Assembly (NCBI GenBank): GCA_016748015.1
Contig: JAAOMT010000222.1
Coordinates: forward strand, 375,924 to 439,923
DNA length: 64,000 nucleotides
From: Geosiphon pyriformis uo1
Lineage: Eukaryota > Fungi > Glomeromycota
Direction of reading: 5' to 3'
In this document: positions 2,022 through 34,464 of the stretch, piece after piece
How positions within the stretch are numbered: position 1 is the first letter of the stretch
Layout: each line of letters begins with the position of its first letter
Notes under the pieces: model-generated
Told to the model about the DNA's origin: nothing
The model's database searches: none
Seen by the model: only the letters and a program-made list of their open reading frames with translations
Translations under genes and position numbers: made by a program

Positions 2022-2241
2022 GTTGAAAACATCAGTTAACTTTTTTCAAAGCTTAAATGTAAATAAAAATTTTAAAGATCCAGCAATTTGGTGACACGTA
2101 TCAAGATTCCAGTCAGGAAATCTATTATGAAAACCGAGCTATTTTCGGAAACTAATCCAAAAATAATTTCTTTGTGATTTATTTATTTTTAGAAAGAATC
2201 TGAAAAATTTTAAACATCCTGGTTTTTTACAGATCCACAAA
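2022..2241. promoter_or_regulatory. Short (220 bp) divergent intergenic region, putative bidirectional promoter for PMT2 and ERB1
   Basis: The start codons of the two genes face away from each other (ATG at 2021 on -, 2242 on +). The region contains TGAAAAATTTT at 2201-2211. Confidence 0.55.
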
Positions 2242-6012: not shown

Positions 6013-6548
6013 ACCATTTTAATTTTGTAAATCCCCAAAATTGAAATTTTTAATCAACAAAACCAAAGTAATGTTGTTACTGCTTGAATCATCATTAGTT
6101 AATCGTTGTAATTCATTACCAGTCAATGAGTGATTGAAGTATCTTCAAATGTTACCTAGATCGATCGGTTTAGGAAGAAACTTGGTTTGTCTTGATGAAT
6201 TAAGTCATAAACCTCAAATCATTAACTAGCAATTGGTCAATTTCACAATTCTTAAAAGGAACTATCGAGTTTTTGACTCAAGGACTTTCAAGTTTAAAGT
6301 GATCTTTTACATTTTTAAGGTTGAAACCCAATATTGGTCACTCATTAGATAATTTCATATATATGCTGCTAGAGAATGGTAACTATAAAACGATTCGTCG
6401 TAAAATTAAAGCTGCCTAGTCAATGTGTTAGCAAACTGCAATGAGATTTACCACTGATATATATTACTTTCCAATACGTTATTTGTCGGCCCTCTTAGCT
6501 GAGCTAGCTCTATTCCCATACCTTGATTTTAGCAATAGGCGCAGAATA

Positions 6549-8019: not shown

Positions 8020-9469
8020 AGTTTTAAAAGGTTGGAATTGCAAGAAAAAATATCCAAGCAATCACTCAAGCAAAAAGCAAAAAATGTCGGTGGGTCTAAA
8101 AGTCTGAGATATGAACACTAATAATACTAGAAAAAACGGGTTAACAAGAAAGGCCTCTAGGGTAAAGTCACTTACAAAAAAGGCGCGCAAGATTTTGCCA
8201 TAGCAAATTGCTAGTGGCCTTTTAAATTTTTATAGATAAAAGTGATCTTAATATTTTGTCTTCGCTTTTTCCACGTTTTTTACCATCTGATCACTAATGT
8301 CTTTGTACTCCAGTGTAAGAAGATTGTCGGGGTTTTTTGTCAAACACCGGAGAATTCCGGTAGGCTCGGTTTCAATAAACAAAAATCATAATATATTCTT
8401 TTGGCAGTTATTAAAAAATATATTAAAATAATTTGTAATTATTAACAAAATAACATTATTGCTATTTTACTCTCTTTTATATTTTTATAACCACTATTAT
8501 GAAACTGTTTTCTTAATATATTAATATTACAAGTTCCAGTTTATACTATATTTAGTTTTTCATGAGTTTTTTAATTTTGATTACTTAATATTATTTGTTG
8601 TTATATAAAAAGTTTTTTGTTAAAATTAATAAATAAGTTTTTTTTCTAATTTTTGTTGCTTTATATGTACTAAATTTTATTTGTTATTATTAAGATTTTC
8701 TTTGAAGTTAATTTTTGCAATTAGCTAAAGTGTTTTTCTAATTTAAAAACACAAATATTAATAGTTTTAAAATTTTTTCTAATAAAACAATAAATATTTT
8801 TATTAATTAATAATAATATAAATAATTAAAATTAAATAAAAATTTTTAATAAATTTAACTAATAATTAATAGTTTTATTTTATAATAAATATAAATAAGT
8901 TTATAATAATAATTTTATTTTATTTTTTTGCTTAATTATAAGACTTATTAAATATTATATATATTTTTTATTAAAAAAATTTAGTATTTTGAATTTGAAT
9001 TTTTTTTATATTAAAACTATTATACATATATATATTTGTATTTTTACAAGATAATATTCTATTTTTGTTATTTTAAAATAATGTTTACTGTTATTACAAA
9101 ATAATATTTGTTGTTATTATAAATTAATACTTGTTATTATTATTATTTAATAATTGTTATTATGTAAATTATTATTTTAAAAAAATTATTATTGTGTTAT
9201 TTTATAATTAATTAATATTTGCTAATTTTTAACTAATAATATTACTTTTAAAATTAAAATTAAATTAGTTATAATATTATTTTTACCAATTTTAATTTTT
9301 AAAATAAAAAAACTAAACAATATTTTTTTAAAGTATTTTTTTAGATAATATAAAATTAAAATAATTTTTAGTTGTTGTTAAAATATTATTTTTGGCTTTA
9401 AATAAAAGTTTTTTTTTAAATAATTAACTAAAATTAGTATAAAAAAAACTCTTTTGTTTTCTTAATTTT

Positions 9470-11610
9470 ATGACTATAACCAGAGCAAAGAGTAAAAAAG
9501 CTGTACCTAATATCTTTTTTGAGATATCTAATAAAATTTTAATCAGAAGAGCTTTCTTTGTAATAGAAACAACTAGGCAGAAAATTTTAAAAGTTTTTTC
9601 TTTACCTAATAATCATAAAAAGCTATCTTTAGTAACTATTAAAGCAACTTCTTCATTTTTGGCTGGTTTTTCATCAATCAAAGTTCTCTCAAAGAGACAT
9701 ACTTAAATTAGTTCCAGTATTACCTTTACCCCAACTAAGAGCCCAAAAGTTTTTAATAATAGACCAGTAAATAAGCTGGTCTTTCTTTTTTTAGCTTCAA
9801 TACCTGGTGCTGTTAACACTACTTCTTCAAAAAAAATGGTCAAAAAAACCAAAAGTTTAGAAAAGTAAAAGCAATTACTTGCCTCTGTTATTGTTACACC
9901 GAACTCTTTTGTGGTTCCCAATAAAATCTTAAATAAGATCTCCATAGTATCTTCTGGTATATTATTCAAGATGGACCAAAATCAACTACTGGCTATATTG
10001 CTAAATATGGTGTTTTTTGGCAGATTATCACTGGTTTTAGAAACAAAACAATTATCTTCTGTGATGTTACTTGTTCTTGAAAACTGAATTGACCAGATGG
10101 AAACTAAATTATTCTTTTCTTTGGTTTCTGGTGCTATTTCTAATGGTATTTAGAAAACTATTACTAATTATTAAAGATTTGCTGGATAGGTGGTCTCTAT
10201 TTTAGTGTCTGGTATTATTTTCAAAATTAAATTGGTTTATGTTAAGGCTGTTTTTTAGTCTGTGCATGGTTTTTTGAATATTAAGTCAGTGTCAAAAGAC
10301 AATATAAAGCTGTTTTATATGAAGTTTGTTTCTCAAAGTTTTCTAAATACTGCATTTTTGGTTAAGCTTATAAGCTCTGTTTACTTTACTATTCTTAAGA
10401 TTGCCAAGTCTTTAATGGTTTCTAAATTTGGTTTTTTTCTTGCTGCTGTTGTATTACATGATATGTCTTTGAATATGTCTGTTGTTGATATTAAGTCAGT
10501 TTTTGGTGTCTTTGGTAAAATTTCTTATATTCAGTTAAAACCTGTTGGTATTTGGCAATATGTTGTTGTTTACTTTAAAACTTTGGATGCTGCCACATCT
10601 GCTCTTAATTACTGGTCAGTTTTGGTGGACAAAGATAATGTTTAGATCCTTCTCTTTGTGAATTAACAGGAAACAATTTTGTCTCATAATAGATTTAAGA
10701 CTAAGTTGGTTAACCTTTTTCCTGGCTGTATTGTCTTTAAAATTAGTAATATGATTTCTTAAGTTAGTAGTTGAACTTGTTTTATTTCTTAGTCTCCTGA
10801 TTCTAGTCATTGTTTCTACTTTGTTCTGGTTATATTTGGCTCCCAAGCTGATTTGACTCTCAAGCTAATTTGGATTTTGCTGTTGTCAAAACTAATATAC
10901 TAAGAAAGTGTCATATCTAGTAGAAAACCCCTGGTTGTTAGTGTTGTTTTCAGTGTTAAGAAATGGGCCACTTGGCTGTGGACTGTAAAATTACTTCACT
11001 TCCCTTTTCTAAGGCTTTCAAGGTGTTTAAACCACATTTTATTGGTTCTTTGTCTTATACAAAAGCATTTGCTCCTCTTGTTCTTTCTGAATTTCCTTTT
11101 TTGGTGGCTTCTGCTTCTCTTGTAGCTGTTGTCAATCCTTTGATATCTTCTTAGCTAGCTAATCTGGAATCTGAATTGGCCAAGTTTTCTGTTTTGGTTA
11201 ATTTTATTGTCAAGCTTATTGGCTCTATGATTAAAGTTTTTGAACAATTTATTAATAATAATCTGGTTTTAAGTGCTGCTCTTGGTCTTAGGGTCAATGA
11301 AGTTTTGGTTTACATGAGTACTTTTAGCAGAGCTGTTGGTAAGTTGGAACAGAAAATGATTGCTTTAAAAATAGAATGTGGTTTTGAGAACATTGATATG
11401 TTAGGTTCCTATGTAAATTTGTCATCTTTTAATAATGATATGTTTTCTAATTTAATGTCTCTTTAAAAACATGAATTTGCTGCTATAAAAACTAATGCCT
11501 TTAAAACAGCTGAGTAGTTAGTTGGATTGGTTAATAATAATGTTAGATTATTTGAGATTGTTCAAAGAATGTCTTCTTTGGGTAAGTTTTCTTCTGATAC
11601 ATCAACATAA
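9470..11610 (+). pseudogene. Degenerate non-LTR retrotransposon ORF1-like (gag-like) gene: RRM-like region, CCHC zinc knuckle, C-terminal coiled coil; no ORF2 follows
   Basis: ORF fragments at 9470, 10262, 10963 and 11176 join into one ~710-codon frame interrupted by stops that look like C>T/G>A products. The single frameshift coincides with a 17-nt tandem duplication at ~10840-10873. Motifs: LHDMSLNMSVVDIKSVFGVFGKISYIQLKPVGIWQYVVVYF (RRM-like) and CFQC*EMGHLAVDC (CX2CX4HX4C). Confidence 0.7.
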
Positions 11611-12268
11611 TATAGCTTAAATTGACTCAAGTAGCTGGTTACATATAGTAAACATATAAGCCATATTTAGTCCTGGATCACTTAGTTTGGTCCTAATTTC
11701 TAGATAGTAATTGGGCCATACTTATTAAAATTCATAATAATAAAAAATTAGTTTTAATATAATTATTACTATTATAAAAATTTTTAAAATTTTTAATAGT
11801 AAATTAAAATTAAAACTATTTTTTTTTACAACTTTTTTTATATTTGTTTAAATATTTAAAAAAACAAAAAAATTATTTCTTTAAAATACCAAAAAAAATT
11901 ATTTCTTTTAGTTTTTTTTAAAACATTATTTCTTTTAATCTTTTTTAAAACATTATTTTTAAAGTTTTTTTTTTATATTTATATCAATTTTGTAATTATT
12001 ATACTAATTATAATACTTAATTTAAATTTGATTATAAATAATAATAACAATAATATATTTACCAAGTTAATTTTTATTAATACATAAAACAAATTTATAT
12101 TTTTATATATAATTTTAAATAATTAATTTATTAGTTTTTATTTTATTTTATTTTTTATAAGTACAATTTAACTATAATTTAAAACAATATAATTAAACAA
12201 AATTCTAAATTAAATATGATTTATACTTTTTCTATATATAACCAACTATTTAAATCAATTAAACAATA

Positions 12269-12561: not shown

Positions 12562-14095
12562 TGTTATGGATTGAAGTAACAAATTAATGGATAGCAAGAG
12601 AAAACAAAATTGTAGAATGATGAAAGAAATCAAAGAGAATTCAATTTCAAAGAGCAAATTGAATGAATATAGATTCAATATGCAAAATCAGTCTTATAAA
12701 ATATCTTAGTTGCTATACTTTTTAAAAGATAACCAGGGAATCAGAAGGTAAAAGAATAGTCCATACTGTCAACAAATAATCACATACTGGTATAATTCTA
12801 TGTTTCATATTAGCACTCTTAGAATTCAATATCAGGTATTAGATGTTGTTACTTATAAAATATAGGAAGTATATTAGCATATAAATTAGCCAATTAAAAA
12901 TAGCCATAGTAAATATAAAATTCCAGGATTCCTCTCAAGAAGAATCATAGGATTCCAGAAATTTCAGGATTCTTATATAAAAAATCGCAGGATTCTAGAA
13001 TTCCAGAATTCCTCTCAAGAGGAATTGCAGAATTCCTGATGTGAAAAATTGAGGAATTGAGGAATCTTAATTATGTATATATAGCAGTAGTGCTAAAAGT
13101 AGAAAAGACAGAATCTTTTAGTTAGAAATCTTCCATTCACAAATATTAATAAATAATTATTATTCTTTATCTCAATCCATTCTTCATTATTAACACTTCA
13201 TGTTGATAGTAATTGATACTTAACCATACTAAAACAATAACTTTTAATTATGGCTATTGACAGAATACTAACTTGTAATTGCTTTTGTTTATTTTGTTTA
13301 TTTTCTTTTATTTCTTTGTTTTACTAATTGATTAAGAATTAAAGCACTGAATTATTGATATTAAGGATAGTCTGGTAAAAAACCCAGAAATAAGGGTAAA
13401 ATTATATATATTAATAAATAGCTTACCAAAAGGGCATGACTGCCAGATTAAACCAGCCACCACACTGAAGACAGAAATTGGGAAAACAACTTGAGAAATC
13501 AACCAAAACCAATTATAGTAAATTTCTGTCTATTATACAAAGAATTCAACTCTAAAAACCTTCAAATACAACATACCAGTATTATCAGCATTATCAAGAT
13601 ATTGAGCACCAAGTTACAGATTTGTTATTTAATCTGAGATCCCAAATAATCATTTGTAACAATGTACTCTTCAATCACATTTTATTCAATAATCTTCAAA
13701 TATTGTAATTACACATTTCAGAAAAAGAGTAAAAAATAACCAACAAGTAATCTTTTATCTCAAGATATTCAGATACTTGAAGATAGAAAAAGAGAAATTA
13801 GCAATAAGAGAATGATTAAGATAAAAGTTGTTATTTTATTTTTTTTATTTTTTTGATTCTTATATACTTTTCTACAGCTAAAAAATTTATTACTTATATA
13901 GTTATCAAAAGTGGTCAATAATCAGATCAATAATTAGGTCAATGATTAGGTCAATAATCAGGTCAATGATTAGGTTAATAGTCAGGTCATTAATCAGGTT
14001 AATGATTACTATTTAAAAATAGAGTGGCTAATTATATAACATTAATGGCTAATACATATAATAATTAATAAAAAGTGTGAGTTTTAACTGTAATA
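12562..14095 (-). repeat. 3' LTR of element A (interrupted by solo LTR 12847-13661; contains eight 12-bp tandem units at 13913-14008)
   Basis: Aligns with 30394-31084. Its net length is 715 bp versus 691 bp, and the 24-bp difference equals two extra 12-bp units. Confidence 0.9.
12847..13661 (+). mobile_element. Solo LTR (B/D-type superfamily) inserted in the 3' LTR of element A
   Basis: TGTTAC...TGTAACA termini and an ATGT 4-bp TSD on both sides. Its 3' half is homologous to the LTRs of B, D, E and G. Confidence 0.9.
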
Positions 14096-14757
14096 TCATC
14101 CTTTTCAAAGAGATTAAGCTCCAGTAAAATCAAGCTATTCATGAGATAATCTAATTAAAAAGTCTTGTTTAACTCAAAGTTAACTAGTTTGTTAAAGTTT
14201 TTTGTAGATAGGGTATATAATACTTGTGATAAAATAAGTTTTGTATCCAAGAGATTAAATTTTTGTATTAAAGTTTTGGCTCTTTTAGCAATAGTTAAAA
14301 CTCTTGAAACATCTAACTGTATAATGCCCAAAATTTTTGCCTGTATCTCTGAAGTTGTTTTCTTTATAAGTTTTATATTCTTTATGATTTTTTTAAGATA
14401 ACCATAGAGTTCTAATTGTCTTTCATATGACAGATTTTTGTCTATGAGCAAAATTTCTTGGATTGTTTTTCTAATTATGCTAAAAAGTGAGAATATAGCT
14501 GCTGTTATACTTTCTAACAGATATTTATTTATTTTGCTATCAATTTTTTCCCTTCTGGTAGTGGTTTTCTTTGGTCTAATAACAATATATGTTTTACTGT
14601 TATCAGTTATAGTGGTCTGTTTTTCAATAGTCAGAGTAACATTTGGATAGTTTTGATCCAATACTTATGAAGAGTATAAAAGGCATTTTGAATATTTTGA
14701 TCCAGAAAATAATTGTTTATGTTGATTAAAAATATCTCTGTTTTGGAAATGGTACAT
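14096..14757 (-). pseudogene. Extra ORF (ORF3) of element A, between integrase and PPT; function unknown
   Basis: ATG at 14757 lies 4 nt after the integrase stop. The frame reads MYHFQNRDIF...*VLDQNYPNVTLTIEKQ...VLTIAKRAKTLIQKFNLL...LSTKNFNKLVNF and includes the 168-aa open stretch 14155-14661. Confidence 0.65.
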
Positions 14758-14761
14758 TTAT

Positions 14762-17700
14762 TTATACTTGATTTTTGCTGATTAATTGGATTGGTATTAC
14801 TACAACAGGCAACCAATCAGATCGTTTATGATATTTTTTAAATCATATATCATAAACAAAACAATCATTGAAAATTGTTCCAGATTGATCTTGAAGAATA
14901 TAAGAACCATTGTTCAAAACTTTGTTAACTATAAAGGGTCTTTTCCACCAGCTAGAGAATTTATCACCATAAATATTGTCTCTGTCTGAATAGTATTCCA
15001 ATACCAAGTTATTAATACTTAAAAAAAGTGTTTTATAGGTTTTCTTTTTTTTAAGCTTTTCTTGAAACTGTTTTATTTTTTCAAAAGCAATTATTCATGC
15101 TTCTACCAAGGAATCAAGAATGGTATCAAGTCTTTTTTGCAAAATGTCTTTGTAATTTTCTATTGTGATTTTTTCAAAAGATATTGTCTTAATGTCAGTT
15201 TTTATTGGTAGTATTGCCATGTATTTATAAAGCAGATAAAAAGATTCATAACTTATTATGTCATGATTTACAGTTCTATAAGCAAACAAAGCTAAAGACA
15301 GTATTTTGTCCCATAAGTTTGTTTTTTTACTGGTTTTAGCTAAGGTTTCACATAGTTTTCTATTGAAACATTCTACTAAGCCATTTGTTTGAGAGTGGTA
15401 AAGAGAAAAAAGTTTATGACATATTCCCATTTTTCTCCAAAGTTTTTCAACCAGTGTACTGAGAAAAGCTTTTTCTCTATCAAATAAAAGTTTTTTGGAG
15501 CAGCCATGATGACAAATGATATCTTTATAAAAAAATTGGCTATTAAGACTGCTGTTTGGTCTGGAGTGGCTCTTGCTTCTACCTACTTTGTAAGATAGTC
15601 AGTAGCTGTGATAATGTATCTGTTGTTATCAAGAGTTATTATTAAAAGTCTAATAATGTCTATACCAATTCTGTCAAATAGTTGACCAACAGAGATTGAA
15701 TGGATATTTTTTTTGTGATTGAATTTGTCTTTTCTTTAGCAAATATCACAGATTTTGATGTATTCAGCAATGTTTTTTCCCAATATAGGCCAATAATAAT
15801 GAGCTAAAGTTTTTTGAATTGTTTTTGTTTTTCCAAAGAATCCAGCTAATAGATCAGTGTATATGTTGTATATTACAATTTCTCTTTCTTCAAATCTGAT
15901 AACTCTCTGGAAATAGTCAGAATATTTTCTGTTTTTTTTATATAATTAGTTCTGGCAGATCAAATAGAAATTTGATTGTTTGCACAAATATTCTCTTTGT
16001 TGTTGAATGTATTCTAATGGGTATTGTTTTTTATCCAAAAATTCCATTAAGGCAGAATAGTTGTTCAAGTCCATTATCATGTTTGTTTGTGAAAGAGTTA
16101 CTAATAATTAGATTGATTTGGTTTGAGAAGTTGTACTATCACTGGATGGTAAGTTTAGAAAGAATGTTGGCATTTTGATGATTTGCTCCTTTGTGGTATT
16201 AAATATTATAGTTAAATTTATCCAAATGGAGTATTCAGCAAGTTATTTGTTTGTGTTCTAGCTTCTTTTTATTGCATAGCCAAACCAAGACTTAATCTGT
16301 TATTACTAAGAATTTCACACCAAAAAAATATTGATCCCAGTAACTAGTAGCCCAAACTACTGCTAAATATTTTTGTTTAGTAACAAAATAGTTCTTTTTT
16401 GCTGGTATAAGAGATCTACTGACATATGCTATAACATGTTCTTTGCTATTTTCATCTTTCTGTGAAAAGACACCACCAAGTCCATAACCAGATGTATTAG
16501 TGTGGAAGATAAAAGGTTGGTTCAAATCAAGTTGCTTGATAATTGGTTTAGTAACAAGTTTTTTCTTCAGAATTTCAAAAGCTTTTTGTTAATGAGTGTC
16601 TCAATAATAGTTGACATTTTTTCTGAGTAGCTGATTGAGAGGAAAGACGATTTTGGAGAAATCCTTGATAAATTTGCAATAGTAAGAAGCCAAACCAAGA
16701 AAAAAGTGTAGTTTAAAAATATTCATTGGTTGTCTAATGTTTTGAACTTTCTTAATTTTAGCTGGGTCAGAGAAGATTTCATTTTTTGTAATAAGATGAC
16801 CAAGAAACTGGGTAAATTGACATCCAAAGAAAGATTTGATTAAGTTGATCTTAAAGTCAGCATTTCTGAACAGATCAAAAACCTTCTGCAAATATTCAAA
16901 GTATTTATCTCAGGTTTTTAAGTAGACTATTATGTTGTCTAAGTAGACCAAAACAAAGTTTTTTTTTACTGATTCAAATACTTTGTTTATTAGGCATTAA
17001 AAGATAAAGGGGCATTAGTGAGACCAAAAAACATAACTGTAAATTCATAGGTACCATACTTGATGATAAAGACAGTTTTTTTTCTGCTTTCTGGATCTAT
17101 CTCTATTTGTCAGAATCCAACAGTTAAATTAATGATTAAGAAGAAAGCAATACCATTGAATTTATCTAACATTGCATCAATTTTGAGAAGTAGATACATA
17201 TCTCTTATAATAATGGCATTTAGTTGGCAGTAGTCAATACAGAAGTGTAGGGTTTCATCTTTTTTGGATACCACTACAACTGGGAAAGACTATTTATTCT
17301 TGGTTTTTTATATGAATTCAAGATTTTTTATCTGGTTTATTTCTTTCTTAATAAACTTATTATTGTGTTGATTGAATTGATAAGACTTCAAATAAATAAA
17401 ACAAGTTTCTTTTGTGGTAATAGTATGTTGTATTACATGGGTTTATCTAAGAGTATTATCTTTTTTTGAAATAACTGAGCTATTTCTAGTCAACAAATTT
17501 TCAATGTCCACTTTTTTTTCTTCAAGAAAAGGTTTTTTTTGTTTTGTAACTAATGATTGAATTTCAGGTAGTTCATTCTTAAAGAATTTTTGTACTTTTT
17601 TTAGTTTTTCTCTGGGTATCAAACTAATTGGCTCCCAATCTTTGTAATAGATCAGACAGAACTTATATTCATCACTAAGAGAATACAAGAGTTTATTACA

Positions 17701-18746
17701 CCAGCACTTGGCACAAAGACCATGCTACTAATAACTGTATTTTGCTTTCTTGCCAAGTTTTCTATCAAAAGTTTTTCTAAGAGTATCATAGTAGGGTCAG
17801 CAGATTAGCTTGTCATTTACCATGATTCTATTTTTATTAGCTTTAATATTGTCCAGTAACTTGCTATTGCTAATAAAGATAGTATAAGTGAATTTAATAG
17901 TTTTTTTTTATTCTTCTTGATCTTTTTTTTCATCACTCTTATCATTATCTGATTCATCTAATTGTTCTTTTTCTTGGTTCTTCTTGAGTATTGGAGAAGT
18001 TGTCCAATGGTAATATTTAACCATGATGGGTTTCTTACTATATCTGATAATTAGTTCACAGAGTTTATAATCAAGCAAAGCTTTTGCTTTCTTAAGCCAT
18101 TCATTGTTAACTATTATGGTGTATTCTTTCATTTCAGATACTTTTATGTCAGTTTCAATGTTGATACTATTAATTCGGACAGGAACAGCTTTGGCTATGC
18201 CCAGATTTTTCTTCTTGTCACCATGTACATTGGTTATTAGTCTTGTGGATGGTTTATTAATTTTTCTGCCAATTGCTTCTAAGAAGTGTTTGACAATAAT
18301 ACTAACAGATAATCCACTGTTCAGGATTAAATCAATAAAATAACCAGCCACTTGGGCTTTACAAATGAGAGGAGTAACATTGCTGTTGTTAGCAAGTCCA
18401 GCTTGGCGTGAGTGCTTGTTAGTTTTTGATGTCTTTTTTTTGGAAATCAAAGATTTGTGAAGATTTTTTCTGAATTGGGAATGGGTCATTAACTGGCCAA
18501 AGATAATATAAGCAGATGTTTCTATAAAATTTTTGACAACAGAATAAGAACCAGATTTTTGTACTATTTCTGGGGATTTTAACTTTAGAGAATTCTTAAA
18601 AACTTTGGTCTTTGGTGGCTTATTGTTATCAACAATAGAAGTTAAGACTTTGTTGGGATCTAGAATGAAATCAACCTTGGCTTTCTTTTTTTTTCTTGTT
18701 AAGTCAGAGGAATTAATAGCCAGTTTATCTATATTCTGGTTATTGT
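14762..18746 (-). pseudogene. Element A gag C-terminus and pol (protease, short Cys-rich spacer, RT, RNase H, integrase)
   Basis: Protease LILNSGLSVSII (decayed DSG) ~18310. RT ~16600-17400 (FVLVYLDNII). RNase H FIFHTNTSGYGLGGVFSQ...HVIAYVSRSL ~16290-16525. Integrase core ~15095-15700. GPY/F-like region ~14900-14960. Confidence 0.88.
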
Positions 18747-19627
18747 TGTTATTCATAAAGAAAACAGTTATAGAAAATAGTAGACCAATAAGGGAGTAGT
18801 AGTTAGCACATAAGCATATTGCTTAGCAATATGGAGCAATATCAGAAATTACAGCACATTGCTCAACAATGTAGAGCAATGTTAGAAAATTAGGGCATAT
18901 TGCTTAGCAATATAAGTATTGCTCAAGAAATTATAGCACATTGCTCGAGAATATGAGCAATCTCATAAAACATAAATTAAGTATATATAACAGTAGCATT
19001 AGAAACAGAAAAGACAGACTCCTCAGTTTAGATTTGATTTAAGCAATCTTTTACATTACAAATATTAATAAATAATTATTCAATATCTTAAATCCACTCC
19101 CCACTATTAACACTTTATGTTGATAGTAATTAATACTTAACTACACTAGAACAATAGCTCTTGATCATAACTATTGATGGAATACTAACATTCATTGCCT
19201 TGGTTTATTTTTTTATTTTCTTTTATTTTCTTTTGTTTTGTTATTTTTTGTTAGGTACTAATTGATTAAAGGATTAAAGTATTAAGTTACTAATGTCAGG
19301 ATATAGCATTGATAAAAAACCCAAGAATAAGAGTAAACATTCAGATTTGAGGATAGCTTATCAGGAAATTGCCAGCCACTACACCGAAAAAAAAATTGAC
19401 AGAATTGTGATTCCAGAAAGTAATAGACAACAACTACTTAACCTATGAGTTAACATTGAAAACACTATTTAAAGAAAATTACATTAGAATCTCTGTTCAT
19501 TATACAAAAAACTTAACCAAAATTTTCAGATATAGTTAACTGTCAGAAACCAACATCATTATATCAATTAAGCACCAAGTTATGAGTTTGTTATTTGCTT
19601 TAAGACTCCAAATAATTACTTGTAACA
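18747..19627 (+). repeat. 5' LTR of element B (four ~40-bp palindrome-containing units at ~18814-18965)
   Basis: TGTTA...TGTAACA termini; colinear with 27835-28715. Confidence 0.92.
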
Positions 19628-19629
19628 TT

Positions 19630-19646
19630 TGGTGCTTCCTGTGAGG
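19630..19646 (+). promoter_or_regulatory. Primer-binding site of element B (TGGTGCTTCCTGTGAGG)
   Basis: Starts 2 nt after the LTR with TGG, complementary to tRNA CCA. Decayed homologues follow the 5' LTRs of A, C, D and E. Confidence 0.85.
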
Positions 19647-22600
19647 TATAATTTTACAAAAAACCAGCACCAACAAACAATTATCCAAAAGTAGCAGAAT
19701 CAAAAATAATAGGAACAAATTATTTAGGATTCACTAAATTTTTATTTCAACAGTACAGCCAACAATTGGGCTTAACCAACAACTATTATTCAGCAGAATT
19801 AGCTTTCAACTTCTATGTTAATGAAAGAATTACAGATTTTTTGAGAAAACCAGTTAACATTGAGTCAGCAAGAGAAAATTTTTATACAGAATTAATCCAA
19901 TACATTAGCTTACTATGAAATTACAGTTTTGCACCAATCATCAAAAAAATTAATCATGAAATTGAAAGATACACTTAACAACAATTTCTCATTACCTACA
20001 CAGATAAAGATAAAGGAAAGTTACAAATACCAACAGCAACTTTAAAAGAAATACAATTACCAATGTGGAAGAAACAAAGAATCAAATCTTTACTATATTC
20101 ATCATACTATTACATATCTGGAAGTACCATCAATATTACATCAGCAGACATGTCCACATCAAATATGACATCAACATTTGAACAACTTCCATTTCAAAAT
20201 AAACAAAAAAAAGCAGAGTTATTGGGAACATATGACAATTACTTTAAAAGATTCAAATCACAACCCCCAACATCATCAGGATTCTGATCACTACCACCTC
20301 CACCAGATTTCGGAATTGCAAGTCCTTGGGAGATAATGGCATTAGAAAAAAAAAAAAAGAATCAAGAATTTAATTATAAAAATTTGATTGCAGAAAATCT
20401 GGAAGTTGAAACTCCAAATATTCAAACCCAGCAAACTTAGAACAATTCAAACTCCGAGTTAATTAATCAGCAAAACTTACTTCCAAAAATCATTATTAAT
20501 CAACAACCAATTGATCTGATTGCTGAACAACTTTAACAGCCACCAATACTATTTCAACAATTATCATCTCAACTACCACAACAACCAAACTTGGATTTAA
20601 TGGTCTATGCCCCAATAGCAAAACTCAAAAAATTCACAGGTGAAAATGATGATGTCCAAGTGTGGCTGAATGATGTGAAAAAAGCTATTACAGCCAATGG
20701 ATGAAATAATGCATAAGCAATACAAACCATTCCATACTTCTTTTAAAATACTACTGACTTATGATATTAGAGCTTGGTCAACAAACCTTAGAACTTTAAT
20801 GCATTTAAGCTTGAGTTCTTAAGATATTTTAGCAACAACAACAGTATTAATTGCTTAGCCAATACCTTCACCACTATCAAGCAAGGAGAAACTGAAGCAG
20901 TTACTACTTACTTAGAATACTTCCATAGAAACTTGTGCCAAATATAAGCAATTAATGTGAATTACTTTACAACATCACAAATTTTAAACCAGTTTATCCA
21001 TGGACTGTGTAGTAGTATTCTCCAATGCATATGCCTAATGCACTCACAAATTCTTCAAGACACAGTTACTAATGCACAGGATTTCAAATTTGCAAAACTC
21101 GAAGCTAATCATGCTCAAACCATTAATCTAGTAATGAACAGATTATCTGAACTGGATTCCAAATTAAAACAACTCAGTAATTCAATTAATCAGAAATTAA
21201 AAGGATACTTAGCTAATAATTGTGCAATTTATCAGCCATTCTAATGATGCAATAATTCTGGAAACATGAATCACTCCCAAAATCAGGTGCTTTTTCATTA
21301 TTATCCAATCAGTTATGGCAGCAAAAGACATATAACTGCCACAATTGTGATAAACAAGACCATTTGAGAATTGACTGCCATTTTTATAATAAGAACTTAC
21401 AATCAAAAAATCAATATTAAAACCTCAATTGCAGGTTGCAAACTCTGAATTAATATCCAAATCAGAATTAATACTTACCTCATTATATCCAAATGATACA
21501 ATAGCCAATTTATTAACCACCAGTATATTAAGTTCCAATTTATCAGCTAACAAACCCTGTCATTTATCAGCTATAGCTGCAAGTAATATACCAGTCCCAA
21601 CAAATTCAAACACCACCACAAAACTTATCTCAAACTGGAACACAAAGGCTGAAAATGATACAACAAAACTGAAGATCAGCAATAATTATCTATTAACCAA
21701 TTTTCAGTTCTTCTACCTAACAATTAGGAACATGCTCTCAGAATTTGGAGACTAGGTACACCCAAAACCCAAGTTTTTAGAACTATTTAAGTCTTCTAGT
21801 AACTCCAGAAAATGCCTTATCCAACAACCAGAAGCCCAATCAAACACTACCACTTATCAACAACATATCTCCAGCCACTATTACCAATAACAAATTATTA
21901 GCAGCAATTTTTTCATTCAAACTTGAGGAATTGTTATTTATGCTTTTGTTTAGTGGAGCTGCTCTTAAAAAAAAACCAATTACCATCATGTACACTGATA
22001 CTAAAGTTGATGGCCATCCCATCAAACTCATATTAGATAGCAGATTAGCAAGCAGCATTATCACCCAACAACTTATAGACCAATTAGGTTACTGAGTTGA
22101 TTGCACTGCCAGCACCAAAATAATAATAGCTAATAGAGTAACCAAAACTCTAATTGGCAAAATAGACAAATTACTTATTAAAATCAACAGCATTATTATA
22201 CCTATTAAAGTTCTTGTAATAGAAGCAACTTAGTACCAAGCTTTTGTTGGGAATAACTGGCTGTCCAAAGCCAATATCATGCTCAACTGAAACACTCAAG
22301 AACTACAGCTCAGCCAAAATGGCCATCACACATGTGTGCCAGTTACTTGTGGTCATTTTAAAACTACTATCAACAATAAGCCATTCATTAAATTAAAAGA
22401 AGAAAAAAAAATCTACCTGGGAAGTCTACCAAGTCTTATGGACCAACACCAAACACAATAAGTTACCACTAATACTCTTCTGGAACAACAAAAGAAAAGG
22501 AAAAAAAAAAGACACACTAAAAGAAAACATTGCTACAGAAAAAGTAACAAGTGGCTGGAAAAGATTTTACTTATACAAACCACTAAAGCAACCACCATAT

Positions 22601-23500
22601 ATCCCACTCAAATACCAAGATTGTAACAAGAAACTCTCTTCTATGGGAGCTTAGATTGTGCCCAACAAAGATTACTAGACATGAACACATTATTACTGTA
22701 AGCTGTATCACAAAGAACAGTATGGCTATTCAAAACAACAAGGCAAGTAGGACAACAAATTATGTTTTGCTTGTGAAAAATAGTTGCTTGACAAAGAAAT
22801 GTGGAATGACATTTTTGGTTAAGGAAAAATGTATGACACTTCATGCCAATACACAATCCTCATAAACAACTGAATCAGTTGTGATACTCCTATTACTGCA
22901 GTCTGGCATCAAACAATAACTCGCTTGAACAGTTACCCACATAACAAAGACAAGATCTAAAGAATGACAAATGCCAAAGTAGAAGAAGCCACATTCAGCA
23001 AAATCTTGGAAATTAAAAATAATCTTCCAGAACCAGTCGACATCATCCTCATCCCAAATCCAGATGCTTTTCTTGACATAGAAACAGGTCCAAAAAAGTT
23101 TCATAAGCACTATCAAAATTTGGCACCAACAAGAAAAGAGCAAAAACAATATTTAGAGAAAATAAACATCCAATTATGTGACCACTGTTTGATTTCATGT
23201 AACTTTCAATATTGTAATAAGTGTGACCTTATTTACAATCCACCATCACACATGATTTACACAATCTCGGAAAAGGAAGAACCAATCAGCAGCTATGTAT
23301 CAGAATTGGAATCAACTTTTAATTCTGATTCAAACTTTGACAACAATAATAACAAAAACAATAGTTCTAGCTCTATGCAAATTAGCAATGATAAAAATGA
23401 CAATTCAAACTCAGATTCAAATTTTGAACAATACATCACACTTTTTGATCTCTCTAAGAAGCAAAAACTCAGATAGTTCAGTGACAATGATAAAAGTATT

Positions 23501-23890
23501 ATGCCAGAATGTGTACATAATACCAATGCCAGGTTTGATTTGAAATATTTAAGAAAAGATGCCATCAAATTGGAACCACATTTACATACTTGTATCAATC
23601 ACAAAATAGCACTAGAAATCCCAGCAACAACAATGATTTAACTAGCATCTAGGAGTAGCTTAGTAAAAAAAAAATCAACATCAAAGGAGGAATAATTGAT
23701 GCAAGATATTTGGAAAATATTATTACAATATTACAAAATGACTTAGAAAAGGCCTATATCATAGAGCCAAATGAAAAGATAGCACAGACAATATTTCTGC
23801 CTCAGATTAAAATAGCTCAATTAGTCTTAGTAGAAAACAGAGAAAAATTGGGGATTACAGCTAGAGAGATATAGAGATTTAGATCAACAG
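23501..23890 (+). pseudogene. dUTPase domain within pol of element B
   Basis: All five trimeric dUTPase motifs are recognisable in decayed form: ARFDL (AGFDL), LASRSSL, GGIIDARY (GGIIDAGY), EKIAQTIF, and REI*RFRST (RGxxGFGST). It lies between the protease (~22000-22360) and RT (~24450). Confidence 0.85.
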
Positions 23891-24449
23891 ATAGAATAGA
23901 TATATCAATTAATATGACAGAAAAAAAAATTGCTGACAAGAGAGAAATTATTTCCACCCATCAATCAATTTTCATTCCACTATATGACCAGTACATAGTA
24001 ACCATAAAAAGAAAAGTAAAAAATCAGGTACAAATTTTTAAGACAGAAGCAACACTTTGTAAATTAAGAGAAATTGAATTAGTCAATCTACACATACCAG
24101 CCAAGAACTACAGTCACATCAAAATTCCTATTTACAACAACATGGAAAACACCATCAAGATACCAGAAGGAACCACCATTGGATATTTAATCACTGAAAT
24201 TGAAAACCAACTGCCAAGCACCATTCCAAACTTTTCACAACTGTGTAGATATGTAGATATTACATTTCAAACAATATATAGATGAGAAAAATGTTATCTG
24301 CTCTAACCAGAACAATTGGAACAGATGAACTTAGAAAATCTAGACTTACTACAATGTATGCAGCTCAAGATATTACTTAACAACTTCAATGACATTTTTG
24401 CTAGCAAAAATAAATTTGGCAGAACTGACATAATTCAGCATCAGATCAA

Positions 24450-27119
24450 GACTAGAAATGTAATACCAATTAAACAAAGAGCATACAGAGTACCACCAGC
24501 CAGCCATAACATCATTTGTTAAGAAATCAATTGGATGCTTGACAACAGGCTAATTCAGTCATCAATAAGTCTATAGTTATTATGAGTGATACTAGTTCAT
24601 AAGAAAAATGAAAAAATCCACTTTTGTGTGGATTATCAAAAACTGAATAGAGTAACAAAAGGAGATAGCTATCTAATTCCAAAGATTTAAGAGCTGTTTA
24701 ATGCTTTTGGAGGAAAGAAATGGTTTTCAACTTTAGATTTAGATAGTGGTTATTAACAAGTAGCCATGAACCCAGAAGACAAAGAGAAAATAGCTTTTAT
24801 GACTCGAGAAAGAAATTTTGAATTTGAAGTTATGCCATTTGGCTTAATAAATGCTCCAGCCATATTTTAACAACTCATAGAAATTGTTTATATTGGACTG
24901 CTATAGAAATCAGTAGTCATGTATCTAGATGACACCAACATGTTCTCCAAAACATTTGATGATTATTTACATTATCTTCAACAAGTATTTGAAAGACTAA
25001 GAAGAGCCAGATTAAAATTAAATACAACTAAGTGTTTCTTTGGAAAAACTGAACTCAAGTTTTTGGAACATATTATGAGCAAAGATGGAATCAAAACAGA
25101 TCCAGACAAAATTGAGATAGTTAAGAACTTTCTAGTACTTACCAACTTAATAGAACTATGAGTATTCTTAGGATTTGCAGGTTACTATCACCATTTTATC
25201 AAAAATTTTTCTAAATTGGCTTAGCTATTATATCAGCTTCAAACAAAGAACACCAGATATAAATGAACAGAAACTCAGCAAGAAGCTTTTGATACATTAA
25301 GAAAAAAGCTTATTCAAGCTTTAGTACTAATCTATTTAGATCATAGCAAGTCATTCATAATTACAACAGATGTATTTGGTCAAACATTAGGAACAATACT
25401 ATCTCAGAAAAGACTGGATGGATGAGAACACTCAGTAGCTTACACTAGCAGAAGCTTAAGTCCAGCTAAAAAGAACTATAGAACTTTAGCACTAGAACAC
25501 TTAGCTATCTATTGAGCAGTCATAAAATGAAAAAAATACTTGAATCAAAAGTTTGATGTGTACACTGATCATAAAGAATTGACTTCAATCTAAAAGCAAA
25601 AATTTGGAGATGATCATCATGCCAGATAGAAAATAGAACTGTTATCATTTAACTATATAGCATATTACAAAAAAAAAAATGGAAATGCTAATGATTTGTT
25701 ATAAATAAGACAAATCTAAAAACATTTCATCCCAAAAATATAACAAAAGATGAATATACAAAAATACCAACAACTCCAATATTACATAAATACACAATTG
25801 TTCAAGGAGAAATTATCTTAAAAGAAACAAAACAACATAAAACAACAATCAAAATATTTTATCAACCATTAAAATATACTTTACCAAAAAAACAAAAAAA
25901 ATTCAGATCAACTAATCAGAGTAATTACAGAATAAGAGAAAGAGACAATATTATTCAATATGCACTCAGATCCAATAGCAGAACATTTTTACAAAGAAGC
26001 AATCATGGAAAAAATCAGAAAAAGATACTATTGGCCATCTATGTATTTAGATATTATTCAATATATCCAAAATTGTGATGCTTGTCAAAAAAAAAAAGAA
26101 ACAAAACCCAATAAGCCATTGAGACCAATCAAAGTGGGACAACCATTTGATTACATTGGAATTGACTTAGTCAAACCATTAACAATCACCAGTAGAGACA
26201 ACAGATATATTGCAGTAGCCATGAACTATCTCACAAAATGGCCAGAAGCAAAAGCCATTTAAAGAGCAGATGCAGAATCCATTGCCAAATTTGTTCATCA
26301 AGATTTGATCTGTTAATATAGATGTTCAAAAAAACTATTATTAGATCAAAAAACTCACTTTGTGAATAGAACATTGACAGAATTAAGTCAAAATTTTGGA
26401 ATAAAAAGACTATTATTATCATCATATCATCTACAAACAAATGGGTTAGTTGAAAGGTTTAACAGAATATTGTGTAAAGCAATAGCCAAAATCAGCCAAA
26501 AAAACCAGAACGAATGGAATTTGTTTATATCATCAATATTATTTGCTTACTGGACAATGAAGTAAGACACTACACAAACAACATTATTTGAATTAGTATA
26601 TAGTAGAACAACAACATTATCAGTTGAGATAGAAGTCAAAACATATCCAACAAAACCAATAACAGAAGAGAATTTTCAAAGAACATTGTTGAAAAGAACA
26701 TATAACTTAATAGAGATACTAGAAAACAAATAGTGAAAAACAGCTAATAATATCCAAAAGTCACAAAAAAAACAAAAAAAAAGACATAATAACTAATTAC
26801 TAAATAAACCAATCAAATTTAAAATTGGAGACAAAGTATTTTTACATTGTACCAAATGAAAAAACAATGGAATGGAAAATTTGACCTCAAATAGGATGGA
26901 CCATTTCACATAGAAAAAATTCTAGAAAATAGAGCTTATAAATTAAGATTGAACAACAAAATTTTAACCAAAGCAGCATATAGAGATCAACTGAAACTAT
27001 ATCAAAACATAGTATTAGCATCTACCAGTAATATTCTACAATTGAGAGCACAGAGAATACTAGTTCAACCAGATGAGATTCCACAAGATCTGGAACCAAT
27101 CATAGTTATTGAACCAAAC
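24450..27119 (+). pseudogene. Element B RT - RNase H - integrase
   Basis: Motifs in order: PIKQRAYRVP, FEVMPFGL, MYLDDTN, RNase H FIITTD...VAYTSRSL, integrase HHCC region (HSDPIAEH...YYWP...CDACQ), core IGIDLV...YHLQTNGLVERFNR, and GPF motif. Confidence 0.9.
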
Positions 27120-27821
27120 ATGTCAAATTGAACAACCAAAAAAGTATATAAATACACAGTATATGCAACAAAAGCAATAAAGAAAAAATGTAAATACCAG
27201 ACCATATTCACACTTTAGTTTAACAAATGTTTTAGGCTTTAAATTAACAACAAGTAAACATAGAAATTATCATCAACAACCAAACAATCTGTTATTGAAA
27301 CACCAAACAAAAAAAAAAGTACACCATACTAGCGACCACAAAAACAATCAATAAACTGGTCAAATAAAATAGTAGAGAAAGTAAAAAACACTTTTGGAAA
27401 GATAACCATTATCATTCTAACAGAAGAACTAACAAAAAAAAATTGGAATTAATGAATAAACCAACTTTTAATACCATACTGCTACTATCAATTGGAACAA
27501 AAAATAGATATTCAAAAGTTATATCTTGATAAATCCAAGAGAATCTTCAATTAAAAGATAATCCAGAATATTGAAGACATTATTAGAAAGAAAACAAACT
27601 TGACACTATACATTAAGACCATTTATTGACTACACACTATATTTCAAAACTACCCAGAAGTATTGTTACATTCTGACATGGAAACAATAATCATTAATCA
27701 ATAGAGAAAAATGAACAATTCACAAATTAAAGAAATAAAGAATAGGGTGGAACAGATACTACTTAAAAAAGAAGTATTTAACATAATTCAAAATAAAGAT
27801 TTCAATAGAGTTCAACATTAA
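27120..27821 (+). pseudogene. Extra ORF (ORF3) of element B, between integrase and PPT
   Basis: ~230 decayed codons starting MSN (in frame with the pol end) and ending ...YIKTIY*LHTIFQNYPEVLL...KMNNSQIKEIKNRVEQIL...DFNRVQH* immediately at the PPT. A homologous region lies in D at ~45260-45966. Confidence 0.55.
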
Positions 27822-27834
27822 AAGGAGAAGATAA

Positions 27835-28715
27835 TATTACTCATAAAGAAAACGGTTATAAAAAATAGTAGACCAATAAGAGAGTAGTAGTTAGCATGTA
27901 AGCATATTGCTTAGCAATATAGAACAATGTCAGAAATTATGGCACATTGCTTAGCAATGTGGAGTGATATTAGAAAATTAGGGCACATTGCTTAGCAATA
28001 TGAGCATTGCTCAAGAAATTATAGCACATTGCTTGAGAATGTGAGCAATCTTATAGAACATAAATTAGGTATATATAGCAATAGCATAAGAAACAGAAAA
28101 GACAGACTTCTTAGTTTAGATTTGATTTAAGCAACCTTCTACATCACAAATATTAATAAATAATTATTCAATATCTCAAATCCACTTCTCACTATTAACA
28201 CTTTATGTTGATAGTAATTGATACTTAACTATACTGGAACAATAGCTCTTAATCACGGCTATTAATAGGATACTAACATTTATTGTCTTGGCTTATTTCT
28301 TTATTTTCTTTTATTTTCTTTTGTTTTGTTATTTTTTGTTGGGTATTAATTAATTAAAGGATTAAAATGCTGAATTACTGATATCAGGATATAGCACTGA
28401 TAAAAGACCTAAGAATAAGAATAAACACTCAGATTTAAGGATAGCTTATCAGAAGATTGCTAGCCACCATGCCAAAAAAAGAATTGACAGAATTGTAATT
28501 TCAGGAAGTAACAAACAACAACTACTTAATCTGCAGGTTAATATTGAAAACACCATTTAAAGAAAATTACATTAAAATCTCTGTTCATTATACAAAAGAC
28601 TTAACCAAAACTTTTAGATACAGTTAACTGTTAAAAACCAACATCATTATATCAATTGAGCACCAAATTACAAGTTTGTTATTTGCTTTGAGACTCCAAA
28701 TAATTACTTGTAATA
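27835..28715 (+). repeat. 3' LTR of element B
   Basis: Colinear with 18747-19627; preceded by the PPT AAAAGGAGAAGATAA. Confidence 0.92.
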
Positions 28716-30342
28716 TCATCAATTAGATTAAAAGCATAAAAGAGATTTTTTTCTGGTTGGCTTGTACTCTCACTTTTTGGAGGTACACCTACTAGTTTAA
28801 AAGCTGATAAACAGTAGCTTTAATTAAGGGATTCTTTTCAAAAAAATTGATATTGACATGATTGGATTTTTGATTGGAGACATTGTTGTTAACAGTTTTG
28901 TTGTTTTTAATTGTCATTGTTTCTAAGAACTGGAGAAGACAAAGGAGAATTGTTGCAATTTCTGGAAAAATGTTTAGTTAATCCACAGCAATAACACACA
29001 AGTGGGCCATGATTTTGTTGTTTTTGATAAGAAGATTGCTGGGACTGATTAAAACAGAGTTCAAATCTGGATTTTTGTGGTTGTTAATTCTTTCTGACTG
29101 CTTGGGTTAAGAGTTCTAGTAACTGTGCAAGATTAGCTGTGAGTCTATCTATTAACTGTTTATTTAGATCTTGAATTTGGGCAGCAAAAGAGATAGCAGC
29201 TATTTGGGGAGCAAAAGCCATAACAAGAGCAAAAGCAAAAACTGGAAAAGTGGATCTCAGATGCATTTTTTGGTTATCTTCTATTTTTTGGGCAAGTTCA
29301 ATAGCCATATCCATTGTGTAATTATCTTTCAAGACCAAGAAAAGCCAAAAAGCATATAAAAGATTGGTTCTTAATTTTTTTGTAAAGAAATGTATTTTCT
29401 GTTCTTCCATCCAATTTTTTCCTAAGTCTACCTGTTTAATTAGCTTTCTTATTGCTTTGGCATATTTAGTTATTATTTTTCTTGAGCCTTGAGTTCTTTT
29501 TTCTAATTCTATGTGCCACTTGGATATCAAGATTGGAGTTTTGAACTTATTTTCAAACTGGATAGTAAAAGAGGTGTTGTTTTCTTCAGCATTTGCAGAT
29601 TTCTATCTAATAATTCTTTGATGAACATTGGCATCTGTTTCTTGTGAAAACCAGATAGCAGGAAAGTTTTGGAGATAGCCACCAACAATTTGGAACTTGT
29701 ATTTATTATCATATTGATTGGCTGTAGCAGTTCTTTCAAAGTCATCCAACCATTTAATTAGATCTTGTACATTACCTTTGAATAGTGGTAGTGAGATATT
29801 GTTTTTTCTTTCTAAAGCAGTTTGTATATCTTGGAGAGTGGCCAGGATGTTTACTTGTATGAAGTCATTAGCCATTGGTTTAGGGGTAACTGTTTGTGTG
29901 GATGAGTTTGATTTACTTGATAAAAAGTCAAAAACAAAAACAGTTTAGTAGCTTTCTTTTTTTGTTTCAAAGGGAGTTTTAATTGATTGATGAGCAGCAA
30001 TCCAAATATGGATTTGATAATTCAGATATTCGAAATCAGAAAGCTGTTGTTCAAAAATTGTAGAGTATAAAAGTTGATTAATACTGTTGTTTTTTTTTTA
30101 AAGTTGTCTTTAAAATAAGCTTGGTCAAAGTAATAAGTTGTATAAGCTGTGTAAATTTCAGCTGAATGCTCATTTAAAAACCAGTTCCAAAAGTTTTGAA
30201 ATTGTCTGCTAGATTGTTTTTTAATAGGGAAGCAAATTAAGCAGGAGAGCAAAAAATTAAGTTCAATAAAGTCTAAATTGTTTTTGTTGTGTGCTTCAAA
30301 ATATTCTTCTAATTGTTGTGGCAAATATGAATAATCATTCAT
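28716..30342 (-). pseudogene. Element A gag (capsid-like region and CCHC zinc knuckle)
   Basis: LPLFKGNVQDLIKWLDDFERTATANQY and LEKRTQGSRKIITKYAKAIRKLIKQVD. Zinc knuckle CYCCGLTKHFSRNC at ~28950-29000. Confidence 0.85.
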
Positions 30343-30393
30343 ACAATAGAAAACAAGTGGATTTTGACAACCTTACAGAGAGCACTACTTTTA

Positions 30394-31084
30394 TGTTACA
30401 GGTTGGAGTAACAAGCTAACAGATAGCAAAGGAGAACAAAATTGTAGAATGATGAAAAGAATCAAAAAAAATTTAACTTCAAAGAGCAAATTAAATAAGT
30501 ATGAATTCAATATGTAAGATCAGTCTCATAAAATATCTCAGTTACTATACTTTTTAAAAGATAATTGGAAAATCTAAAAATAGAAGAATAATCCATATTG
30601 TTAACAAATAATCACACACTGGTATAATTCTATGCCTTATATTGGCACTCTTAGAATTTAATATTAGATATCAGATGTATTCTTCAATCACATTTTATTC
30701 AATAATCTTTAAATACTGCAATTACACATTTCAGAAAAAAAGTAAAAAATAACCAACAAGTAATCTTTTATTCCAAGATGTTCAAATACTTAAAAAGAAA
30801 AAAAAGAAAATTAGCAATAAGAAAATGATTAAAATAAAAGTTGTTATTTTATTTTTTTTCTTTCTTTGATTCTTACATACTTTTTTACAACTAAAAGATT
30901 CATTGCTTATATAGCTATTAAAAGTGGTCAATGATCAGATCAACAACTAAGTCAATAATCAGATCAATGATTAGGTTATTGATCAGATTAATAATCACTA
31001 TCTAAAAATAGGATGGCTAATTATATGACATCAGTAGCTAATACATGTAATAATTAATAAAAAGTGTGAGTTTTAACCATAACA
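30394..31084 (-). repeat. 5' LTR of element A (six 12-bp tandem units at ~30926-30997)
   Basis: Homologous to 12562-14095; adjacent to the PBS (revcomp TAGTGCTCTCTGTAAGG at 30371-30387). Confidence 0.9.
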
Positions 31085-34200: not shown

Positions 34201-34464
34201 ATCAGTCAAGATTGCTGAAAATTCCAATCTTTTTGATATTTTTCTATTTGAATTTGAAGCAAACAAATTACTATTTTTGCTTAGTAATACAGCAATTAAT
34301 GAACAAAAAGCAATTATAACTATGTATATTAAAGCTAAAGTAGAAAAAAAACAAATTTGATTAATTTTAGACAATAAATCTATTAGAAGTATTATTATTT
34401 ACTAATTAATACAACAGCTTAAATGAAATATAAATAAACCAGTTCAAACAGTTTTTGTCACAAC

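Follow-up and report, generated by a model that had tools for sequence, protein, structure and literature searches.

Broad-context C-to-T decay of nested retrotransposons in the glomeromycete Geosiphon pyriformis

Hypermutation of repeats outside CpG is regarded as a trait of the Dikarya. In repeat-induced point mutation (RIP), rounds take the form of strand-coordinated bursts, and hypermutation of CG was reportedly found by Clutterbuck, in 2017, in 'some lower fungi'. Horns et al. report hypermutation at TpCpG in Pucciniomycotina, and Badet and Croll report repeat-enriched signatures almost only in ascomycetes, with Geosiphon absent from the 12 of their 19 supplementary files that were searched. 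Dallaire et al. (10.1101/2021.03.30.436303) give RIP signatures as undetected in Gigaspora margarita and in Mucoromycotina, and Stajich et al. (PMC11105155) describe possible RIP in Entomophthorales, such as Zoophthora radicans, from the composite index and with caveats. In Zymoseptoria tritici, Dim2 is reported to drive mitotic C>T changes in transposons, with the mutation rate raised about 15-fold (PMC8016269; PMC8497519), and a 2026 review (PMC13297926) refers to DIM-2-linked C>T change in repeats. Here we describe the decay of nested transposable elements in a 64,000 nt stretch (the window) of contig JAAOMT010000222.1 of Geosiphon pyriformis, which is placed in Glomeromycotina, Archaeosporales. 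The analysis centres on element B, a Ty3/Gypsy retrotransposon with long terminal repeats (LTRs) that is inserted in a second element, A. An earlier interpretation of this DNA (the sequence-only reading) had proposed RIP-like hypermutation in an undescribed system. The latter wording was too strong, since a methylation-dependent mitotic mutator is already published for Zymoseptoria transposons and RIP outside the Dikarya has been proposed; the apparent novelty lies in the sequence context of a repeat hypermutation probably linked to methylation, and in the lineage of its host.

Spectrum, context and direction of change

Alignment of the two LTRs of B revealed 99 transitions, one transversion and no gaps in 881 nt, and the first 260 nt held exactly the 28 transitions, single transversion and absence of gaps claimed from a hand alignment. 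The LTR pairs of A (94 transitions, 3 transversions in 691 nt) and of element D (108 transitions, 8 transversions in 741 nt) were also compared; a global alignment of the LTRs of element C (91 transitions, 30 transversions) was excluded from the rate estimates as it overran the LTR end and contained a long gap. Contexts were counted for the cytosines of either strand, treating the C/G allele as the ancestral one. In B, the mismatched fraction was 17/20 for CpG, 42/120 for CpA, 27/111 for CpT and 13/44 for CpC. Seventeen of the 99 transitions fall on 10 inferred CpG sites, leaving 82 outside, in agreement with the claim that many lie in other contexts. Since CpT and CpC cannot derive from CpG, whereas a CpA may conceal a former CpG that has decayed in each copy, we took CpT plus CpC as the strictly non-CpG set; 40 of its 155 sites in B differ, and the excess is not confined to CpG as decay of 5-methylcytosine (5mC) at CpG alone would have it. 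These 40 transitions stand against the single transversion (P = 1.3e-6 for a transition:transversion ratio of 2, 0.005 for 5 and 0.10 for 10). Loss of strictly non-CpG cytosines per copy was 0.15 in B, 0.30 in A and 0.48 in D, with 1, 3 and 8 transversions, and the ratio of non-CpG C>T to the per-site transversion rate was 283, 164 and 122, respectively (95% lower bounds 51-62).

CpG was by far the hottest context. By methylation type, the LTR counts were CG 25/28, CHG 29/84 and CHH 133/384 (CHG and CHH 0.35 each), and no preference was seen among CpA (75/207), CpC (32/77) and CpT (60/191; p=0.26). TpCpG (4/5) was no hotter than the remaining CpG (21/23), and purine-C-A sites were mutated at 24/99, so that non-dipyrimidine sites are affected. 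The stated conversion of TG..CA termini to TA..TA can be seen between the 5´ and 3´ LTRs of B (Table 1). The conversion of purine tracts to poly(A), which had also been claimed, was apparent by eye only, at the 3´ LTR of D, whereas the tract of B retains G.

The direction of change is C>T on both strands, after insertion, for LTRs and pol alike. One inferred CpG, decayed reciprocally, accounts for the difference between the two halves of the 4 bp target-site duplication (TSD) of B, indicating one insertion with mutation afterwards. In 11,816 contigs of run X1 over the 5´ LTR region, a run that is possibly the source of the window itself, variant places were C>T at 88, G>A at 80, T>C at 58, A>G at 54 and transversions at 50. 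Among the best 40 of 330 variant rows, 36 of them in the LTR, 19 had the 3´ LTR and the family majority against the 5´ LTR, and 16 of these 19 were C>T or G>A and three the reverse. Runs X2 and X4 gave no contigs on the LTR and were not used as expression evidence.

For pol, relatives from 31 metagenome loci served as outgroups. Conserved columns were changed in A-D at 354/851, of which 217 required C>T or G>A only, 17 the reverse only, two were mixed and 118 needed a transversion; the last were not read as post-insertion changes, as they include family differences from relatives 50-60% identical. Six of 25 conserved Trp were kept and 15 had become stops, and neither G of TGG lies in a CpG, while Phe (74/80), Asn (20/22) and Tyr (39/44) were largely retained. 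The reverse transcriptase (RT) motif reads YLDD in B, YLDN in A, YLNN in D and YFNN in C, and the protease of A carries NSG; the Trp-to-stop, YLDD>YLDN/YLNN and DSG>NSG changes listed by the sequence-only reading are thus all present. A homologue search with the RT fragment of B gave 58 candidates, none at E<=1e-8.

The same C>T bias is found in two unrelated repeat classes. A CpG-free stretch near 9470-11720 gave 147 protein matches, and the 120 listed are all from Geosiphon, on many contigs; matches to RRM, zinc-knuckle, downstream endonuclease, RT and RNase H domains among seven relatives scanned identify the family as a long interspersed nuclear element (LINE), the stretch being its first open reading frame (ORF1). 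The set consists of annotated ORFs found with a decayed query and was compared at the amino-acid level. Among the 120 listed copies, 6,727 differences from the family majority in 50,381 residue-copies comprised 4,835 explained by C>T or G>A only, 681 by the reverse, 492 by transversion only and 719 ambiguous or multi-step. Replacements at strictly non-CpG positions were strongly asymmetric: H>Y 71/679 (10.5%) versus Y>H 5/376 (1.3%), P>S 522/2949 (17.7%) versus S>P 102/7048 (1.5%), S>F 663/7048 (9.4%) versus F>S 1/2292 (0.04%), and R>K 10.6% versus 1.2% for the reverse, with F>Y at 0/2292. C>T exceeded both other classes in all 119 scored copies, at a load of 4-20% per copy that rises with the transversion load (Spearman 0.59). 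Sharing of variants among copies equalled a permutation null (Jaccard 0.089 versus 0.089), which rules out subfamily inheritance and indicates that hits are independent and recurrent per copy. Annotation records the 120 listed relatives as hypothetical proteins of the host, and decayed LINE copies thus inflate the Geosiphon gene count.

Probable confinement to repeats and structure of the nested elements

One ERB1 exon of the window matches G9A89_018058 of G. pyriformis at 100% (next best Ambispora, 85%), and the 14 mapped exons give the exact translation of this 919-aa protein, confirming the suspected non-Dikarya host. Three spliced genes occupy the first 8.4 kb and the remainder of the window is nested transposons. 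The genes have a GC content of 0.352 and a CpG observed/expected ratio (o/e) of 0.78, against 0.02-0.06 in the larger repeat blocks, which for CpG content supports the claim that adjacent genes look untouched, and CpGs end abruptly after position 8367. The 25 introns (1,709 nt) have a GC content of 0.267, with 18 CpG versus 30.5 expected, and four-fold sites of ERB1 are 35% GC. At a rough estimate, C>T outpaces T>C by about 25:1 per site, which would take neutral DNA down to about 4% GC. With introns at 27% and four-fold sites at 35%, we infer, roughly and indirectly, that the process is probably confined to repeats, in line with the earlier suggestion.

Decay is graded, as had been stated: GC is 0.28-0.30 in A and B and 0.185 in 31087-64000, 1-kb windows in old repeats go down to 15-18%, and LTR transversions increase from B to A to D. 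The solo LTR at 36903-37858, said to retain CpGs, does have five (o/e 0.49); at 20.8% GC, and with A/T at 19 positions that are still C/G in the two LTRs of C, it is less decayed rather than pristine. Its five CpGs are puzzling if CpG decays about 20 times faster.

Element B shows the features of Ty3/Gypsy elements, namely TG..CA LTR ends, a TSD and RT ahead of integrase (Table 1). Its integrase (25695-26733) is out of frame with RT-RNase H, and integrase is also a separate ORF in two metagenome relatives (L005 and L018). A Pfam Effector_1 match in the gag of B was weak, under the cut-off, and taken as a chance match. One LTR of A, 12562-14096, is split by a solo LTR. Each of the six TSDs checked (12558-63955) spans 4 bp centred on TG, CA or TA (CTAT/CTAT, ATGT/ATGT, TTGT/TCAT, ATAG/ACAG, CTAT/CCAT and GTAT/GTAT) and fits insertion at CpG sites that later decayed; as all six could be decayed NCGN, TSD mismatches were left out of the non-CpG evidence.

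Two regions beside the LINE fragment, 8400-9440 and 11740-12560, are about 20% GC with about 70% weak inverted and direct mutual similarity, an uncertain similarity given their low complexity; they possibly represent a more ancient element or the spread of decay out of repeats. In the gene block, the spliced gene at 6160-8220 on the minus strand shows, in contigs from runs X2 and X3, an alternative joint (7358-7614 versus 7533-7614), and one exon scanned gave no Pfam match.

Table 1. Features of the window discussed in the text, with coordinates counted from its first nucleotide
Feature	Position	Strand	Evidence or remark
Gene block (PMT, ERB1, third spliced gene)	1..8400		CpG o/e 0.78
ERB1/BOP1 gene with 13 introns, used as control region and to identify the species	2242..6012	+	Exact translation; one splice joint in RNA contigs
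Decayed LINE (non-LTR) ORF1 fragment	9470..11720	+	CpG-free; boundaries approximate
Element A, Ty3/Gypsy, host of B	12562..31084	-	LTRs 30394-31084 and 12562-14096; TSD CTAT/CTAT
Solo LTR, B-related family, inside LTR of A	12847..13661	+	TSD ATGT/ATGT
TSD of B, 4 bp	18743..18746 (left, TTGT); 28716-28719 (right, TCAT)	+	Ancestral CpG inferred
Element B, decayed Ty3/Gypsy LTR retrotransposon, in gag-protease region of A	18747..28715	+	LTR pair; Pfam RVT_1, Integrase_H2C2, dUTPase
B 5´ LTR, TG..CA	18747..19627	+	LTR pair alignment; holds the derived allele for 20 C>T and 31 G>A changes
dUTPase fragment in B pol region, between protease and RT	23659..23871	+	PF00692, E 7e-07
B RT-RNase H region, 454 codons	24337..25698	+	15 in-frame stops; YLDD kept
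B integrase, interrupted by stops	25936..26733	+	Relatives' alignment, Pfam
B 3´ LTR, TA..TA	27835..28715	+	LTR pair alignment; holds the derived allele for 23 C>T and 25 G>A changes
Element D, B-related, more decayed	36323..46741	+	Nested in element C (about 31236-50165)
Solo LTR, C family, inside 5´ LTR of D	36903..37858	-	5 CpG left

Processes that could account for the decay

The decay of Geosiphon repeats is probably the product of cytosine methylation in all contexts followed by gradual deamination, a slow mutator unlike classical RIP. Silenced repeats would carry 5mC at CpG and non-CpG sites. A DNMT1/DNMT5-type enzyme would methylate CpG almost fully, leading to near-total CpG loss at an estimated 17-20 times the non-CpG rate (assuming an ancestral CpG o/e near 1, as in relatives), and a DIM-2-type enzyme would methylate CHG and CHH partially. 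Deamination, spontaneous or methyltransferase-assisted, would then give C>T at at least 50 times the per-site transversion rate, and the changes would be fixed gradually over vegetative time. Copies would be left irreversibly inactivated; selection of the process as a defence would be a separate, hypothetical step. The mutation hierarchy, CG far above CHG and CHH and these two equal, resembles a methylome. Among related elements from other hosts, GC is at least 0.385 in 11/31, with a CpG o/e of 0.21-1.22. In Rhizophagus irregularis, 32.5-49.5% of cytosines are reported as methylated by liquid chromatography-mass spectrometry (PMC8298701), which we take to be more than CpG by itself could account for in an AT-rich genome, and the same source credits the clade of arbuscular mycorrhizal (AM) fungi with DNMT1, DNMT2, DNMT5, DIM-2 and RID. 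Transposons of Phycomyces are reported to have CG and CHH methylation, and its genome to encode DIM2 and DNMT1 (PMC11258239).

Several observations weigh against this proposal. For CHH sites with partial methylation, passive deamination would have to produce a very large excess over transversions. The base 5´ of the cytosine matters about two-fold (TpC 77/172, 0.45; CpC 27/67; ApC 44/145; GpC 19/91, 0.21; p=0.0006), a bias that could equally come from a deaminase. The reported mutator of Zymoseptoria is CpA-specific and spares CpG, whereas CpG is hottest in Geosiphon. Neighbouring ORF1 events share a strand in slight excess when 1-2 codons apart (0.548 versus 0.506, sd 0.014), and the excess is gone beyond five codons. 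Among ORF1 variants found in only one or two copies, transversion-type (159) and C>T-type (168) changes are about equal in number, which we explain by the recurrence of C>T variants in three or more copies. The LTR ancestors were reconstructed by maximum GC, and sites lost from both copies are missed. The intron control presupposes a composition at equilibrium, and the polymorphism control yielded zero base variants in the gene block among contigs of runs X1-X3.

A bolder and rather doubtful possibility is that Geosiphon, and perhaps other early-diverging fungi, hypermutate their repeats through a dedicated system indifferent to dinucleotide context, based on RID or on a deaminase and invisible to RIP indices. 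In its RID-dependent and premeiotic form, the decay would preserve molecular traces of cryptic sex in the AM lineage, and RIP-type defence would be older than the Dikarya.

We think it unlikely that the decay reflects true RIP, that is, a homology-sensing, RID-dependent and premeiotic process of relaxed context, acting through numerous weak rounds in addition to CpG decay and implying cryptic sex. The RIP feature of nearly transition-only C:G>T:A change in repeats is present (99:1, 94:3 and 108:8 in the three LTR pairs), the LTR and LINE families are both affected, and RID is said to be retained in the AM clade (PMC8298701). CpA preference, another RIP feature, is absent. A (-0.44) and B (-0.56) score below zero on the composite RIP index, and older elements lie close to zero. 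The order of C>T and G>A changes was random by runs tests in 6/6 LTR copies, and no copy-level strand skew was detected in 92 ORF1 copies (chi2 97.3, 91 df) or in the 23 lightest (chi2 21.9), although many weak rounds would wipe out such skew; adjacent events shared a strand slightly above the null (switch fraction 0.461 versus 0.478, sd 0.007). CpG is the hottest context, and the load tracks transversions (rho 0.59; B<A<D), as many weak rounds would also give. RIP signatures were reported absent in Gigaspora margarita (10.1101/2021.03.30.436303). Of the RIP-like hypermutation first proposed, what stands is a broad-context process on both strands after insertion; with a RIP-like outcome and two tested RIP features failing, we do not class it as RIP.

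It also appears improbable that methylation accounts for CpG only, the non-CpG changes arising from C>U in unmethylated cytosine, through a repeat-targeted cytidine deaminase or uracil excision excluded from heterochromatin. The favouring of TpC and CpC and avoidance of GpC, the equality of CHG and CHH, the very-short-range same-strand pairing and a magnitude far over transversions would all fit. The context bias is, however, only about two-fold, purine-C-A sites are still mutated, strand-coordinated clusters are absent, and the high bulk 5mC reported for a related AM fungus (PMC8298701) would be a simpler source.

Very little speaks for a C>T-dominated spectrum across the whole genome, with repeats evolving neutrally and genes spared by selection or GC-biased conversion. 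The single-copy control is indirect, and some copy pairs of the metagenome relatives, which mostly keep long ORFs, also show a strong transition bias. Among ten close relative alignments scored, non-CpG transitions exceeded transversions in L023/L024 (32/330, 1 transversion), L026/L027 (20/281, 4 transversions) and L020/L029, the last being CpG-led (65/360 versus non-CpG 23/1028, 3 transversions); the CpG effect was absent in the pair L005/L006. The changes in L023/L024 are 18 synonymous and 14 non-synonymous, and selection may inflate the bias in relative pairs. The process may not be unique to Geosiphon. Against a genome-wide spectrum, introns and four-fold sites hold far more GC than the 15-18% of old repeats or the few percent that the imbalance predicts, and CpG loss ends sharply at 8367.

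Ordinary CpG-only 5mC decay or an artefact is hardly tenable: CpG is indeed hottest, with 17 of the 99 B transitions, but CpG-only decay is refuted by the strictly non-CpG transitions of B, the Trp losses and ORF1 changes such as those at His and Pro>Ser, which like Trp changes cannot involve CpG, while chimeric (recombined) LTRs are ruled out by the matching TSD of B, reverse-transcription errors or cDNA editing by the equal effect on both strands and the mutated TSD, and UV by the purine-C-A sites.

Consequences for dating and comparison with known systems

The Kimura two-parameter distance between the LTRs of B is 0.129, or 0.107 with inferred CpG masked, and 0.0011 from transversions alone, such that LTR-divergence dating is distorted, as had been anticipated. 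The single transversion implies a distance of about 0.003 (upper 95% bound 0.019) if the transition:transversion ratio is 2. Geosiphon transposons would look far older than their true age. Kimura landscapes have been read as Archaeosporales LTR bursts inherited from a common ancestor (PMC11952901); the bursts in these reported landscapes could be much younger, aged by C>T decay. Since a RIP-scale transition bias in a glomeromycete here goes with a negative standard index, index-based surveys would miss such cases. In the literature searched, we found no repeat hypermutation described in Geosiphon and no non-CpG hypermutation in Glomeromycotina, though two Geosiphon papers (genome and metagenome) were outside reach and may bear on novelty; the text of a survey of AM fungal transposons contains neither 'RIP' nor 'transition', and a Gigaspora 3D-genome paper does not contain 'RIP'.

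Rhizophagus irregularis, of the same subphylum, has CG-methylated transposons and very high bulk 5mC, but no hypermutation is described in the parts of the reports available (10.1101/2021.03.30.436303; PMC8298701). The Zoophthora proposal (PMC11105155) likewise places RIP-like change outside the Dikarya, whereas the evidence in Geosiphon consists of aligned, polarised substitutions, and the index used there would miss A and B. The CpG/TpCpG transposon hypermutation reported in Basidiomycota (PMC3318451) resembles the present case in near-total, repeat-confined CpG loss, but in B 82 of the 99 LTR transitions fall beyond inferred CpG sites, and TpCpG is no hotter. RIP of Neurospora crassa and other Pezizomycotina is repeat-confined, as the present process probably is, and similarly affects both copies and several repeat classes, is nearly transition-only and leaves AT-rich remnants; Geosiphon differs in having neither CpA preference nor strand-coordinated tracts, in the negative index of A and B, and in a seemingly clock-like load. 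As for the Zymoseptoria Dim2 mutator (PMC8016269; PMC8497519), transposon C>T change in Geosiphon includes non-CpG sites, lowers the GC of repeats and is probably gradual. That mutator is reported as CpA-specific and was shown experimentally in an ascomycete, whereas the process in Geosiphon takes CpA, CpT and CpC alike, in a glomeromycete, with a putative link to the enzyme.

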